Shown: positions 45,391-51,279, counted from the first letter of the stretch. The stretch: 64,000 nucleotides of DNA from Bacteroidota bacterium (GCA_040751955.1 JBFMFY010000013.1:548-64547), one strand, 5' to 3'. Notes: generated by a model from the letters alone, not told the origin. Translations and numbers: made by a program.

Positions 45391-46785
45391 TTATTTGTAC
45401 GAAGCAAATGCGATTTTCCATTCTCCACCAGGTGTCAATCCGGTATAATAGATTCGCAATTCATTATTGATTTTTGTTAGGTAAGGATATACGATACCGC
45501 CCGAAGCCCAATGATTGGATGTCTGGCTGTGCTTGAAGATCGGGTTTTTTGAATCTTTCACCCAATGGATACCATCCTCTGACGTCGCAAAGCCAAATGC
45601 GATATTTGAATAACTAAATGGATCATCGTTGGTATAAATCATCTTATAAATGCTTCCGTCCTTCACGACTGAAACCCAGGATATGTCTCCATTCTCCCAC
45701 GATTGTGAGGCTGACAAAATCGGAGAAGTGGAATATCTTTTCCATGTTAGTCCGTCTATTGAAATAGCCAATCCAATTTTGTCACCACTACAATAATACA
45801 TGTAGTATTGATTACCAATAATTTCAACCTCAGATGCTACCATAGTGTTTCTTTCCCAATCCAAGCTGTCAGTAAAAACAGGTTGAGGATACTTTACCCA
45901 GTTCTTCCCATCCACCGATGATGCTAATCCAATTTGAAAATGTTTTGATATAGCATCATATCCTTGGTAGAGCATAAAATATTTAGGCCCCACTTTATAA
46001 ACAGGACCTGGTCCAGTACCCCCATCATCCCAACTTCCTGAAGGTCCGACAACAATGATTGGTGTCGAATCTGGTCGGTTCCAATTCACACCGTCGTATG
46101 ATTCTGCATAACCCACCGGACTGGGAAAAGAATAATTCAAATAATACATCCGATACATTCCATCATCAACGTAAATCTTCGGTTGACCAACCCCGCCCCA
46201 ATCAATTGGTTTTCCGGTTTTTGTCAATATTGGATTATTTATATGATCTACCCACTTCTTCTCAGAAGTACCCCACGTAACATTAATCTGCACACTCCCG
46301 ACACCTGTCGGCACCGGAGTCAATGTCAGATTCACCTGCGTTACCGCCCCTTCTAATACGTTCACGTCTGCTTCCCCGGTATATAGTACCTTGGAGCTTT
46401 CATCTTTTGCATCCACTTTCACTTTCCAGGTTCCAACAGCCACTTCGCTGAAAAGCATTGTGGCAGATGTATCGGTAATGATATTGATAGTTTTCGAGAG
46501 TGTTGCGTACCCACTGCGCGAGAGTGTTGCAGTCAATGTTTTTACCGATGCAGGGGCGTTCGCTTTATCGAATGTAAAAGCGATATTGCCTACGTTTGAT
46601 ATCGGCGCGCTCGTTGTTACAGGTGTATTTTTTTGCTCACAACCTCCAAGAGCGAAAAGAAAACCGAAAACCAGAATTGCCAGATTTTTCATTGTGCCTC
46701 CCATAGTTCTCCTTGTGTGAAGATTATGCTGAATTTTCTTCTTTAGCAAGCTGAATTTTACGGTAAAAAAATGCTCCCGAGACAA
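45391..46785 (-). CDS. Lipoprotein with an Ig-like domain and a 5-bladed beta-propeller glycoside hydrolase-like domain (GH43/GH32/GH130 clan).
   Basis: Lipobox LGGCEQ. Repeated S-DG--W-K blade signatures (SYDGVNWNR, SVDGKNWVK, SIDGLTWKR, SEDGIHWVK). Confidence 0.5.
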   Translation of the reverse strand: MSREHFFTVKFSLLKKKIQHNLHTRRTMGGTMKNLAILVFGFLFALGGCEQKNTPVTTSAPISNVGNIAFTFDKANAPASVKTLTATLSRSGYATLSKTINIITDTSATMLFSEVAVGTWKVKVDAKDESSKVLYTGEADVNVLEGAVTQVNLTLTPVPTGVGSVQINVTWGTSEKKWVDHINNPILTKTGKPIDWGGVGQPKIYVDDGMYRMYYLNYSFPSPVGYAESYDGVNWNRPDSTPIIVVGPSGSWDDGGTGPGPVYKVGPKYFMLYQGYDAISKHFQIGLASSVDGKNWVKYPQPVFTDSLDWERNTMVASEVEIIGNQYYMYYCSGDKIGLAISIDGLTWKRYSTSPILSASQSWENGDISWVSVVKDGSIYKMIYTNDDPFSYSNIAFGFATSEDGIHWVKDSKNPIFKHSQTSNHWASGGIVYPYLTKINNELRIYYTGLTPGGEWKIAFASYK

Positions 46786-46858: not shown

Positions 46859-47155
46859 ATGTCAGATTACTCACTGGATGCACTCGGAATGGTTGAAACC
46901 AAAGGTCTTGTCGGAGCGATTGAAGCTGCCGACGCAATGGTAAAAGCCGCAAAGGTTACATTGATAGGCAAGGAGCAGATTGGCGGCGGCTACGTGACCG
47001 TGATGGTGCGTGGCGATGTGGGAGCAGTCAAAGCAGCCACGGATGCCGGTGCAGCAGCGGCACAGCGTGTCGGTGAACTCGTATCGGTGCATGTCATTCC
47101 GCGTCCGCACAGCGATGTGGAAATGATTCTTCCGAAACGTCCGGCATCAAAATAA
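46859..47155 (+). CDS. Bacterial microcompartment shell protein, BMC-H (PduA/EutM/CcmK-like).
   Basis: [30 protein letters not shown]...[18 protein letters not shown] is the canonical PF00936 sequence. AGGAGC RBS. Confidence 0.9.
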
Positions 47156-47204: not shown

Positions 47205-47741
47205 ATGTTAGAACTTGCATTCGGACTTGTGGAAACGAAAGGTCTTGTGGGTGCTGTTGAGGCAGCCGACGCAATGGTCAAAACCGCCAATGTAAAGTTG
47301 ATCGGCAGAGAGCGTACAGACCCGGCAATGATCACCATAAAAATTTTAGGTGATACGGCAGCTGTACGTTCTGCAGTTGAAGCGGGTGCTGCAGCGGCAC
47401 AGCGTGTAGGGCAATTGGTTTCCAAGCATGTCATCCCCCGCCCGGCAGAAAACCTTGAAGAACTCGTATTTGCAAAATCTTTTTTAAGCGATGAAGAAAT
47501 TGCGCTTTTGATCGGCACCAGTCAGACACCCGGCATTGAGGATGAGAAAGAGCAATTTACACCTCCAACTGCATCTTCCGATAAAGAAAAATATACGGCA
47601 GAGTTGCAGGCAATGACCGTGCATCAGTTACGTAACTACGCGCGCAGCGTTGAAGGACTTTCCATCTACGGCAGACAAATCTCGATGGCGAACAAAGAGG
47701 AACTGATTGCGGAATTGCTGAAGACAAAGTACGGAATATAA
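47205..47741 (+). CDS. BMC-H shell protein with a C-terminal extension of about 80 aa that ends in a HeH/Rho-N/SAP-like helix-extension-helix motif.
   Basis: [29 protein letters not shown]...VGQLVSKHVIPRP is a BMC domain but lacks the GxG pore motif. The extension contains ELQAMTVHQLRNYARSVEGLSIYGRQISMANKEELIAELL. Confidence 0.85.
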   Translation: MLELAFGLVETKGLVGAVEAADAMVKTANVKLIGRERTDPAMITIKILGDTAAVRSAVEAGAAAAQRVGQLVSKHVIPRPAENLEELVFAKSFLSDEEIALLIGTSQTPGIEDEKEQFTPPTASSDKEKYTAELQAMTVHQLRNYARSVEGLSIYGRQISMANKEELIAELLKTKYGI

Positions 47742-47777
47742 TGTCGAGACAACGATAATTTTTACCAACGCCCGCTT

Positions 47778-48728
47778 TTGCGGGCGTTCCCATTTGACAG
47801 CGCTAGAATCATGAAAGAAAATAAATTCACGATCATATTTTTCTCTCTCTTATTTGCTGCAATTGTCTGGCTCTCCGTGGATATGGGAAATACGTTTCAA
47901 ACATCAATCGAACTCCCTATCCGTGTCGAACATCTCCAGCAGAACAAAGCAATCGCTTCGCCGCTTCCTACAACAATTCGATTAAAGATCCAGGGGAATG
48001 GTTGGCAGCTGTTAAATATTGTATTGTCGCCAAATTTACGGTACACAATCGATTTCAGTACGCTGTCCAAACGAGACACCGTATTTACGTACAATGACCT
48101 TACCGAACATATAAACCTGCCAAAAGAGATCCATATTTTCGAGACTACGCCGGAAACAGTCTTTGTCCAAATAGATGACAAAATAACGAAGAAGGTCCCG
48201 GTGGAACCGGTCGTATCGACTCTCTACCGCGATGGATTCGGGATTGTCGGAACAATGAAACCTGAACCCGATAGCATTGTTCTTACCGGAGCTCGTTCAT
48301 TGCTCAACCGTATCACAACGTGGAAAACCGATGCCGTTTTGCTGAAAGATATCAATGCTCCCGTTGCAGCTATTATTCCGTTGCAAGATTCTCTTCGATT
48401 GGAAGTAGAACGGTCGCATTCTACCGTGCGCTTGACCTTTGACGTCCAGCCGGTAGCAGAAAAAACAATCGAGAATATTCCTATCGAAGTGAATCAGCTA
48501 CCCGAAAACCGCAGCGTAGTATTGATCCCGCCAACACTCTCGGTTATTATTCGGTCCGGTGTGAATGCGGTCGCGCCGTTAAACGAGAAAGATTTTAATG
48601 CGTTTGTCGATTACAAATCGATCTTGCTGGATACAAGCGGCTATGTTCACCCTATTATCCTCGGACCTGAAAACATTAAGATCGTACAACAGAATCCGGA
48701 AAAAATTCAGTATGTCGTCCGAAAATAA
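47778..48728 (+). CDS. YbbR-like (CdaR-type) repeat-domain protein with an N-terminal TM anchor.
   Basis: TM FTIIFFSLLFAAIVWLSV. Repeated beta-rich units (TTIRLKIQGNGWQL, ETVFVQID) resemble PF07949. Lies 37 nt after the second BMC gene. Confidence 0.5.
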   Translation: MRAFPFDSARIMKENKFTIIFFSLLFAAIVWLSVDMGNTFQTSIELPIRVEHLQQNKAIASPLPTTIRLKIQGNGWQLLNIVLSPNLRYTIDFSTLSKRDTVFTYNDLTEHINLPKEIHIFETTPETVFVQIDDKITKKVPVEPVVSTLYRDGFGIVGTMKPEPDSIVLTGARSLLNRITTWKTDAVLLKDINAPVAAIIPLQDSLRLEVERSHSTVRLTFDVQPVAEKTIENIPIEVNQLPENRSVVLIPPTLSVIIRSGVNAVAPLNEKDFNAFVDYKSILLDTSGYVHPIILGPENIKIVQQNPEKIQYVVRK

Positions 48729-48779: not shown

Positions 48780-50444
48780 TCAGAAGGCTCGGTTCAGTCT
48801 AAAGAAGACCGCAACAGGCGCACTCTTATCGGTTCTCCACGCAAACCCTAACCTCGCGTTTCCGTCATGCCAGCTCAGGGCAAATCCGAGATCCGATTTG
48901 ACTGTTGGTGTTGAGATCGCATCGAACCCCTCATAGATTGCCTTCTTCGCAGGTACGTTGGCTACAGCACCTGCGTCAGCAAAAAGAATAAGGTTAAAGA
49001 AATCGGGCCAGAAGAAAATCTCATCTATCAATTCGCCAGTCATCTGGTATTCAAGATTACCAAGAATCATCCTGTTCCCCACAAATTCTTTGAATCCGTA
49101 CGCCGGCATTGTATTGGCACCGCCAAGTTCAAACATCCGCTGTACAACCGTATTTCCCTCTAATGCCCCGGCACGAATGCGCGCGCTGATCTGATCATCG
49201 TCAGAAAGTGATTGATACCGGCGAATATCAACAAGTCCGTGTGTGAAACTATAATCACCACCGAATTGATTTCCTGCTACCTCAATCTTAGTCAATGCAT
49301 CCCACCCCTCTGAGCGCCTACGGTATCTCTCTACGGTATTAAATCCGGCAGCAACGCTTACACTTCGCAGCATTCCCTCGTTAACCAACGGATTTGAGCG
49401 GAACCGATGCCCGCCAAAGACAGCCCAACTTGCCCGTTGGTCCATTGATGTATAACGATCAACATTGTATCGGACATCGATCATCGTCGTCACATCACCA
49501 TCTTTTGTGTACCGTGCGGTGTGGACGGAATATCCCTCACGCTGGAAATAATCCCGGAAATCCTGATGGAAGAAGAGTGCGGCAAGATTGTTCTCACCCA
49601 GTTTCATGATCCATTCATCTTTTGTGTCGGTCAGGCTGTGAACCTCCGCGCCGATTTCGTACAGCCCGGAAGAAGTCGCGAATTGACGATCAAGTCCTAG
49701 CTGCATGCGCCATTTGTGCGAAGCGAAACCGTAACCAAATGAGCCGTAACCGGACAAGGTACGGCTGCCATCCCAGTAATATTCTTTGTTTTTTCCGAAA
49801 CCAAAGAAAAATCCTTCCACCCGATTATAGCGGAAAAGAAAATTATCGTCGTATTCTCTGTCATACCACATAAACGGTTTGAACGAGTACGAATATTTTG
49901 CTCTCGATGTTCGTTTGCTGCGGGAGCTGCGCGATTCATAACTCTTATTCGATTCTTCAGTATAACCTTCAACGATTGCCCCTTCCTCCTTTGTGATCGA
50001 ACCGTTCATCGCACGGGCATTTCCTTTCACAAGTGCAGTTCTTTTCACAATAATATCACCGTTCACAACGAGCACATCACCAACTACAGTCCCGCGAATC
50101 GTCAATGTCCCGTTTTTAACGACAAGATCTCCTTGGATAGTATCGACTTCTGCAATTTCGGTATCTCCGTTAAATGTGATCGCGTCGGGCGTCTCTTTAT
50201 TCTGATCCTGTTCTCCCACCTCAACGATGGTAGATTGGTGTAAATACGAATTTCTTCCTTCGACAAAATCATCAATACGATGTTCAACACCTTCTACGAT
50301 CTCATCGATGAACAGTTCAATATTATCAGTTGTGTAATCGATTTCCTCTTCCGTGTGATCGAAACTTGGCTGGGCTTCCTGTGCTTGAACTGAAAGGAAT
50401 ATAAAAAATGCGGCAGTGACAGTGGTAGTACAAAATGATTTCAT
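48780..50444 (-). CDS. Outer-membrane protein with an N-terminal bactofilin-like beta-helical repeat region and a C-terminal beta-barrel.
   Basis: Signal peptide. GDLVVKNGTLTIRGTVVGDVLVVNGDIIV repeats. C-terminal FFRLNRAF with a terminal aromatic residue. Confidence 0.45.
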   Translation of the reverse strand: MKSFCTTTVTAAFFIFLSVQAQEAQPSFDHTEEEIDYTTDNIELFIDEIVEGVEHRIDDFVEGRNSYLHQSTIVEVGEQDQNKETPDAITFNGDTEIAEVDTIQGDLVVKNGTLTIRGTVVGDVLVVNGDIIVKRTALVKGNARAMNGSITKEEGAIVEGYTEESNKSYESRSSRSKRTSRAKYSYSFKPFMWYDREYDDNFLFRYNRVEGFFFGFGKNKEYYWDGSRTLSGYGSFGYGFASHKWRMQLGLDRQFATSSGLYEIGAEVHSLTDTKDEWIMKLGENNLAALFFHQDFRDYFQREGYSVHTARYTKDGDVTTMIDVRYNVDRYTSMDQRASWAVFGGHRFRSNPLVNEGMLRSVSVAAGFNTVERYRRRSEGWDALTKIEVAGNQFGGDYSFTHGLVDIRRYQSLSDDDQISARIRAGALEGNTVVQRMFELGGANTMPAYGFKEFVGNRMILGNLEYQMTGELIDEIFFWPDFFNLILFADAGAVANVPAKKAIYEGFDAISTPTVKSDLGFALSWHDGNARLGFAWRTDKSAPVAVFFRLNRAF

Positions 50445-50540: not shown

Positions 50541-50565
50541 TTGTTTGGTTTTAGAGAATGATCGA

Positions 50566-51279
50566 ATGTATCTATCCATCAATATAGACCACATAGCAAC
50601 AATCCGGAATGCACGGGGCGGGACTGAACCTGATCCTGTTGCAGCCGCAGAAATCTGCGAGCGCGCCGGCGCGGACGGCATTGTCGTACACCTGCGTGAA
50701 GATCGGCGTCATATTAAAGACCACGATGTACGAAAATTGCGTGAAACCATCAGGACAAAATTGGATCTTGAGATGGGGGCAAATGAAGATATTATTCTCA
50801 TCGCTCTGGAGGTTGTTCCCGATCTGATCACTCTCGTTCCTGAAAAAAGACAAGAGTTAACAACTGAAGGGGGGCTCGACGTAGTAGCGCAAAAAGAAAA
50901 ACTACGGCGTGTCATCGAGCGATTCCATGAAAAGAAGATTCCGGTAAGTCTCTTTATCCATCCGGAAAAAAACCAGATCGATGCGTCGAAAGAAATCGGT
51001 GCCGATATGATCGAACTACACACAGGCGAATATGCTGATGCTGCCGATGCTGCGAACCAAGATCGATGTTTCAAAAAGATTCAAGAGTCAGCAATTTATG
51101 GAAAGCAGATCGGTTTAGGGGTGAACGCAGGGCACGGATTAAACTACATCAATGTCGTGCGTGTTGCCGCACTCGAGACGATTGACGAAATGAGCATCGG
51201 ACATTCGATTATCTCACGCGCAGCGTTTGTTGGATTGGATCGCGCTGTGAAAGAAATGATATCGCTGGTTAAGAAATAA
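50566..51279 (+). CDS. pdxJ: Pyridoxine 5'-phosphate synthase.
   Basis: MYLSINIDHIATIRNARGG...GADGIVVHLREDRRHI. The ORF track opens at a TTG at 50545; the ATG at 50566 matches the PdxJ N-terminus. Confidence 0.9.
   Translation: MYLSINIDHIATIRNARGGTEPDPVAAAEICERAGADGIVVHLREDRRHIKDHDVRKLRETIRTKLDLEMGANEDIILIALEVVPDLITLVPEKRQELTTEGGLDVVAQKEKLRRVIERFHEKKIPVSLFIHPEKNQIDASKEIGADMIELHTGEYADAADAANQDRCFKKIQESAIYGKQIGLGVNAGHGLNYINVVRVAALETIDEMSIGHSIISRAAFVGLDRAVKEMISLVKK

Follow-up and report, generated by a model that had tools for sequence, protein, structure and literature searches.

A microcompartment shell protein with a glycine-free pore loop and an HeH/Rho_N/SAP-like C-terminal tail in an Ignavibacteriales bacterium

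The gene at positions 47205 to 47741 of the DNA that we analyzed codes for a hexameric, minor shell protein of a bacterial microcompartment, a BMC-H protein in which the shell domain, with an altered pore, is followed by an acidic linker and an HeH-like tail. The DNA, which we call the window, is a stretch of 64,000 nucleotides from a Bacteroidota bacterium (GCA_040751955.1 JBFMFY010000013.1:548-64547). The best explanation of the gene is that an Ignavibacteriales bacterium with a FRAG1-type microcompartment uses its product as a second, specialised shell hexamer. The initial annotation had read it as a BMC-H paralogue with an HeH-like tail and without a GxG pore motif, and this was confirmed, with every string that it quoted present in the open reading frame (ORF) 47205-47741: VIPRPAENLEE at residues 76-86, the linker sequence SDEEIALLIGTSQTPGIEDEKEQFTPP at residues 94-120, and the HeH-like segment MTVHQLRNYARSVEGLSIYGRQISMANKEELIAELL at residues 137-172 (nucleotides 47613-47720). 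It had placed the feature at 47500-47741; the tail and the stop codon do lie inside this interval, but the interval begins at linker residue 99 and leaves the pore-loop replacement RERTDPAM (47307-47330) outside. The layout of the gene and its surroundings is as follows.

46859-47155, + strand: canonical BMC-H shell protein of 98 amino acids, pore loop GGGY; immediately precedes the tailed paralogue
47205-47741, + strand: tailed BMC-H gene, 178 amino acids plus stop; BMC domain, short helices, linker and HeH-like C-terminal domain
47217-47444, + strand: BMC domain (PF00936), residues 5-80; Pfam 94 bits
47307-47330, + strand: pore-loop replacement RERTDPAM, residues 35-42; a canonical BMC-H has K-x-x-G-G-G here
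47454-47510, + strand: post-BMC segment LEELVFAKSFLSDEEIALL, residues 84-102; conserved, two short helices predicted by AF2 at low confidence
47511-47576, + strand: acidic variable linker, residues 103-124; low pLDDT
47577-47732, + strand: C-terminal folded domain as predicted by AF2, residues 125-176; also from Pfam Rho_N, the tail profile and hhalign
47767-47788, + strand: hairpin AACGCCCGC-TTTT-GCGGGCGTT, a perfect 9 bp, G+C-rich, read from the sequence
47811-48728, + strand: YbbR-like gene with one N-terminal hydrophobic helix; Pfam YbbR E 2.3e-8

The shell domain itself is unambiguous. Pfam BMC matched residues 5-80 of the tailed protein with 94 bits against a cut-off of 24.5, and the upstream paralogue at 46859-47155 with 103.5 bits; the latter also scored 140.5 bits with the NCBIfam model of EutM (cut-off 133). 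The best PDB relatives of the tailed protein are EutM, PduA and the BMC-H of Haliangium, all of which cover residues 3-96 only. At the six-fold axis the G-x-G motif is absent and the sequence reads R-T-D-P-A-M, at the place where the upstream paralogue has IGGGY. This replacement is a stable property of the family: T38, D39, P40, A41 and M42 are each at least 90% conserved among 30 aligned relatives of 58-85% identity. As judged from the sequence, a glycine-free pore loop marks a specialised subtype in which the BMC fold would still hold. The interface motifs are modified as well: KAAN has become KTAN, and PRPH has become PRPA, a change of His to Ala. Within these motifs, K26 is the same in all 30 relatives and R79 is kept in at least 90% of them. 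Since these two residues, which stitch hexamers into facets, are retained, the tailed hexamer probably tiles beside the canonical one.

An acidic linker of about 40 residues had been proposed to follow the BMC fold, and such a linker is present, ending in a helical module of about 50 residues. The segment just behind the BMC domain, LEELVFAKSFLSDEEIALL, is conserved, with the family alignment consensus EDLIFAKSxLxxEEIxxLLG, and AF2 predicts helices at residues 84-89 and 96-102 with pLDDT 62-68. In the part that follows, both length and sequence vary among the 30 aligned relatives, and pLDDT in the model of the full-length protein falls below 50 between residues 106 and 115. In a set of 313 tailed shell proteins, linker length ranges from 5 to 338 amino acids, and the net charge of the linker is negative in 80%, with a median of -11. 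The tail core of the same 313 proteins is net positive in 98%, with a median of +4 over about 44 residues.

We then considered the fold of the tail, which the initial annotation had likened to HeH, Rho N-terminal and SAP motifs, proposing profile and structure searches as the check. In the AF2 model of the full-length protein (mean pLDDT 83.9, pTM 0.51), pLDDT is 84-93 over residues 121-178. Here the model predicts a lead helix at 127-136, a helix at 139-148, a 15-residue connection and a helix at 164-176, with pLDDT 86-93; the connection between the helices contains the motif GRxISxANK. When the tail was modeled alone, pLDDT rose to 91.5 and pTM to 0.73, with predicted helices at tail positions 2-15, 18-27, 36-40 and 43-55. 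Pfam Rho_N (PF07498) matched the full tailed protein with an E value of 0.0024 and 18.2 bits, and the window's tail alone with 22.4 bits and an E value of 1.2e-4, just below the curated cut-off of 24.9, a comparison of bit score with cut-off that applies to the window's protein and tail only. The same model matched all 23 of 23 family tails, with a best E value of 1.2e-5. In a set of 35 diverse tails from many lineages, less than 62% identical to each other, Rho_N matched 22 (best E 1.2e-6), SAP (PF02037) 15 (best E 9e-4) and HeH/LEM (PF12949) 2 (best E 4e-4), and the models of all three families, which belong to one Pfam clan, match tails. Using hhalign, we aligned the tail profile with P0143, a triple-repeat protein that passes the Pfam Rho_N threshold with 51.4 bits summed over its three repeats. 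The probability was 93.5% and the E value 2.4e-7, with the connection about 4 residues longer in the tail.

The profile part of the resemblance therefore stood, with Rho_N matching every family tail and the SAP and HeH profiles matching some of the diverse tails, but the structure searches gave no significant match. Foldseek with the tail model against the PDB returned nothing significant (best E 2.9). In a viral structure library the top hit had a TM score of 0.80 at an rmsd of 1.8 Å and an E value of 0.19, and Rho_N-annotated entries stood at ranks 4 and 45; none was significant. Sequence-profile searches of the PDB produced no matches with the family tail and only chance lysozyme or coiled-coil matches with the diverse tails. 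The fold is thus unconfirmed in three dimensions. No alignment was obtained between the tail and residues 1-140 of E. coli Rho by hhalign, so the kinship rests on the Pfam family profiles and not on Rho itself. With the Rho_N/SAP/HeH superfamily the tail shares the spacing of hydrophobic residues, L-R-x-x-A-R in the first helix and K-x-x-L-I in the second. Like members of the HeH superfamily, it is predicted to have two helices and an extended connection; unlike them, it adds a lead helix, and its connection is about 4 residues longer and contains the invariant GRxISxANK. Since P0143 lacks about 4 residues that the tail has at GRxISxANK, the tail could have a specificity of its own. Overall, we consider an HeH/Rho_N/SAP-like tail reasonably supported at the level of profiles and compatible with the predicted structure.

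The tail is also well conserved. Among 5.8 billion proteins searched, at least 120 clusters are related to the tailed BMC-H, with 58-90% identity and 93-100% query coverage, and these come from Ignavibacteriales or Bacteroidota where a source is named. Among the 30 aligned relatives, conservation within the tail reaches at least 90% at V139, H140, L142, R143, A146, R147, G151, L152, I154, G156, R157, I159, S160, N163 and L167 and is complete at A162 and K164; together with the conserved pore loop, this goes well beyond chance. The possibility had been raised that the extension is a disordered tail private to one lineage and without conservation. It is not: it is conserved in the 30 relatives, is predicted with a pLDDT of 91.5 and occurs beyond one lineage. 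Searching 1.84 billion cluster representatives with a profile of the family tail, we found 508 representatives at E <= 0.001 and 46 at E <= 1e-10. Among the best 150 hits, 99 carry a BMC domain as judged by a family HMM, and in these the tail sits at or within a few residues of the C-terminus behind linkers of 17-337 residues; two of the 99 have trailing extensions of up to about 22 residues behind it. Many of the remaining 51 resemble N-terminally truncated fragments, four of which start within the C-terminal part of a BMC domain. In four others the BMC domain is diverged, and there are many short ORFs of doubtful status. One protein, P0181 (328 amino acids), combines two BMC domains with the same tail, and in P0210, P0212, P0214 and P0217 the tail is attached to strongly diverged BMC-like domains by linkers of more than 100 residues.

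The initial annotation had suggested a survey of BMC-H proteins with C-terminal extensions, and the same tail is present on shell proteins of several locus types. The locus of P0257 is a complete ethanolamine-type locus with EutA, EutB, EutC, an EutL-like tandem BMC protein, EutN, aldehyde dehydrogenase and phosphotransacylase. Newly retrieved homologues of P0257 carry the tail in 95 of the 116 cases examined, and P0257 homologues come from Clostridia or Firmicutes wherever the source is named. The P0241 locus has a block of BMC-H, tailed BMC-H, aldehyde dehydrogenase and phosphotransacylase. The pore loops of tailed shell proteins vary and include the ordinary GGGL. Since the tail is common on shell proteins with a normal pore, its coupling to an altered pore is confined to the Ignavibacteria-type family. 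A tblastn search of plasmids with a tail gave no match. P0163, a metagenomic protein of 205 amino acids, also contains a module closely related to the tail, lead helix included, between a hydrophobic segment and a SPOR peptidoglycan-binding domain. This module lies outside any BMC context and probably outside the cytoplasm, a poor fit to a strictly nucleic-acid-binding role.

Some hits suggested that the tail may also exist on its own or fused to a YbbR-like protein, and we examined some of these. The tail-YbbR fusion P0133 was rejected as an artefact, its source contig being full of fragmented genes. P0137, a second apparent fusion of this kind, has an origin without a record and was not counted as evidence. 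The free-standing tail ORFs span 36-86 amino acids, and two of them on long contigs, P0413 and P0200, were checked; both come from error-prone assemblies, where each is the split-off end of a gene whose truncated BMC-H part lies immediately before it, and were rejected. The assemblies L090, L091 and L092 contain many split genes, with RuvX, PdxJ and ETF fragmented as well. The apparent lone tails and fusions in these three are artefacts of frameshifts in the low-complexity linker, and we regard free-standing tail proteins as unsupported.

A scan with one genome per species found the tail in 279 species genomes, and 80 loci were kept. Most of these are labeled Ignavibacteria or Ignavibacteriales, or Bacteroidota or Bacteroidetes, with some labeled Chitinophagaceae or Chitinophagales, Chlorobi or Chlorobiaceae, or Bacteroidia; the closest is from an Ignavibacteriales groundwater metagenome-assembled genome. 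A canonical BMC-H lies directly upstream of the tailed gene in all 74 of the 74 related loci with enough sequence. Of 73 loci, 51 have the YbbR-like gene as the next gene downstream, in the same orientation, and 22 lack it there, and PdxJ is found within 7.5 kb in 58 of the 73. The 64-kb window holds two BMC genes only, and Rfam reported no family over its whole length. Using tblastn with EutN and CcmL as queries, we found no pentamer gene of the EutN/CcmL type in the window or, for 84 loci, within 10 kb on either side. In FRAG loci the shell genes are dispersed over as many as six places, and neither enzymes nor encapsulation peptides can be recognised (Sutter et al. 2021, Nat Commun 12:3809). 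The catalogued second BMC-H of FRAG1 comes from the same taxon, mostly Ignavibacteria (Sutter et al. 2021); FRAG1 genomes also have a BMC-P triplet of the green, grey and orange clades at another place. Our gene pair agrees with FRAG1 in all of these points: the pair of hexamers, the taxon, and the absence of enzymes and pentamers. The tailed gene shows no difference in kind from that second BMC-H and is a member of the family.

A second lineage has the same triad, BMC-H, tailed BMC-H and YbbR-like gene, in four loci, where the flanking genes are RelA and RuvX upstream and thymidylate kinase (Tmk) and CtpB downstream. The YbbR-like proteins of the two lineages are 27% identical from end to end, with an E value of 1e-44. 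Since this alignment begins at MKENK, the likely start codon of the YbbR-like gene in the window is ATG at 47811 and not TTG at 47778. The latter, which is the start of the YbbR-like ORF in the ORF list, is overlapped by the hairpin at 47767-47788. The hairpin begins 26 nucleotides past the stop codon of the tailed gene and has no T-run, which accounts for its not being reported by a terminator scan. The 71-nucleotide stretch that contains it folds at -21.1 kcal/mol with a z score of -2.97, and a terminator or attenuator between the pair of shell genes and the YbbR-like gene is possible. No diadenylate cyclase is called in the gene tables of L001-L004, L086, L087, L091 and L092, and Pfam matched none among the window neighbors between 42773 and 50444.

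An Omp85/DUF5686-like outer-membrane protein (48780-50444, - strand) and PdxJ (50545-51279, + strand) are found beside the pair of shell genes in most related loci; this adjacency is probably lineage synteny rather than a functional link. On the other side, the gene at 45391-46785 (- strand) is divergent from the shell genes and kept in the closest relatives only. It encodes a protein of 464 amino acids with a weak match to glycoside hydrolase 130 (E 1e-12, residues 280-351); for its N-terminal part, Pfam gave only a weak FixH-like match (E 0.05, residues 65-136).

The initial annotation had pointed to EutK as the only loose precedent for the tail. EutK of E. coli and Salmonella is likewise a BMC-H protein with a small C-terminal domain of nucleic-acid-binding type and no known function, and the design is indeed analogous; the EutK domain, however, is a helix-turn-helix, whereas the tail is HeH-like. 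The two domains are not homologous. An hhalign comparison of the tail with E. coli EutK gave a probability of 0.7%, on which we rejected homology, and the NCBIfam EutK model matched only the BMC part of the tailed protein with 81.4 bits, against a cut-off of 218. The analogy is also not new, for the second BMC-H family of FRAG1 is already in the 2021 catalogue with the same comparison to EutK (Sutter et al. 2021, Supplementary Data 2). That catalogue did not identify the domain and did not report its recurrence on other shell proteins or the YbbR-like neighbor. In the literature linking microcompartments with Rho_N, SAP, HeH or nucleoid tethers, we found nothing on the tail domain. Our gene is therefore a new member of a catalogued family, to which we add the HeH/Rho_N-like identity of the tail, its broad spread and its recurrent YbbR-like neighbor. 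Other systems, such as the contacts of McdB with shells and PhaM on PHB granules, likewise use a factor on the surface of an organelle to link it to the nucleoid for spacing and inheritance. They differ in depending on a separate adaptor and a ParA-type ATPase, whereas in the tailed BMC-H the putative link would be built into the shell protein; the genes beside the shell-gene pair include none that resembles ParA.

What could such a tail do? The most likely role, which we put forward tentatively, is that of an outward-facing tether on the cytosolic face of the shell that binds nucleic acid. The tailed hexamer would tile into the shell next to the canonical hexamer, and its six tails would extend into the cytosol on flexible acidic linkers. 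There they would act as tethers, with nucleoid DNA or RNA as the ligand, and would anchor or position the organelle; the glycine-free pore would then indicate that this hexamer serves as an anchoring tile and not for the passage of metabolites. From the structure of the Haliangium shell and from engineering by circular permutation, the termini of BMC-H proteins are known to be on the concave face. In shells this face is turned outward, to the cytosol (PMC6787980), so six tails on a hexamer would project outward. The tail spans locus types and phyla, from the FRAG1 loci of Ignavibacteria to the second lineage and the ethanolamine-type loci of Clostridia. Its presence in Firmicutes, Ignavibacteria and others implies a ligand that all of them have. 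We ranked nucleic acid first because it fits the superfamily, the charge of the tail and the conserved Arg and Lys residues, namely R143, R147 and R157, each kept in at least 90% of the aligned relatives, and the invariant K164. EutK provides a precedent as another BMC-H with an unrelated domain of nucleic-acid-binding type. Against a nucleic-acid ligand, the linker next to the tail is strongly acidic, the related module of P0163 occurs in a SPOR context, and the YbbR-like neighbor hints at a protein partner. HeH motifs can bind proteins too, as in the LEM-BAF interaction, and Rho contacts RNA mainly through parts other than its N-terminal helices.

A protein partner is in fact nearly as likely as nucleic acid. 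It is possible that the tail is a protein adaptor on the cytosolic face, serving a positioning or segregation factor or a cytoskeletal, membrane or YbbR-like protein, and not a nucleic-acid binder at all. The YbbR-like gene completes the triad in 51 of the 73 Ignavibacteria-type loci and in the four second-lineage loci, and its products in the two lineages can be aligned from end to end; yet the gene is missing downstream in the remaining 22 of the 73 and has no counterpart in the tailed ethanolamine-type loci of Clostridia, and in the window a strong hairpin separates it from the tailed gene. Only about five residues precede the single hydrophobic helix of the YbbR-like protein, and by analogy with CdaR the remainder should be extracytoplasmic, which would leave little for the tail to bind. 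The apparent fusions do not help here, P0133 coming from an error-ridden assembly and P0137 being of unrecorded origin. For protein partners more generally, the GRxISxANK insertion is foreign to generic HeH motifs, LEM domains of the HeH type bind a protein (general knowledge), and the module of P0163 is fused to a SPOR domain.

We think it unlikely that the tail docks back on a hexamer, either its own or a neighboring one, at the concave face or the altered pore, where it could serve in gating, control of assembly or cross-linking of shells into clusters. The BMC shell surface is the one partner common to every tail-bearing organism, long flexible linkers would permit contacts within or between shells, and in the Ignavibacteria family the tail is always paired with a modified pore. 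The Clostridia tails, however, sit on hexamers with ordinary GGGL pores, so plugging of the pore cannot be the general role, and the full-length AlphaFold model, with its pTM of 0.51, a low-confidence linker and no inter-domain confidence in its output, gives no support for contact with the BMC domain. The tail might also face the lumen as a scaffold that captures cargo in place of encapsulation peptides, and an unusual device of this kind would be welcome in FRAG loci, which lack recognisable encapsulation peptides and enzymes (Sutter et al. 2021). This we regard as very unlikely. The tail is found in ethanolamine-type loci too, a locus type that normally carries encapsulation peptides on its enzymes (general knowledge). 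To bring BMC-H termini inside, circular permutation had to be engineered, and 6NLU, among the PDB matches of the tailed protein, is presumably such a circularly permuted BMC-H. In every solved shell, the concave face with the termini points outward (PMC6787980 and general knowledge).

Returning to the nucleic-acid tether, a broader version of it can be formulated, although we consider it speculative and rather doubtful. The HeH-like tail would be a general device of BMC surfaces across phyla and microcompartment types that fastens the organelle to the nucleoid or to RNA, allowing ParA-independent positioning and inheritance by hitch-hiking on the chromosome; or it would show that the FRAG1 organelles, which lack enzymes, are associated with nucleic acid. 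For FRAG-type microcompartments neither cargo nor function is known, and extended shell proteins, EutK among them, have been without an assigned role for more than a decade. The conserved, predicted folded and outward-pointing domain that recurs in Ignavibacteria, Clostridia and other lineages offers a handle that can be tested. If it binds DNA or RNA, this would explain the positioning or inheritance of metabolosomes and would give engineers an external docking module. If it binds a protein, the partner would be a new component of these organelles.
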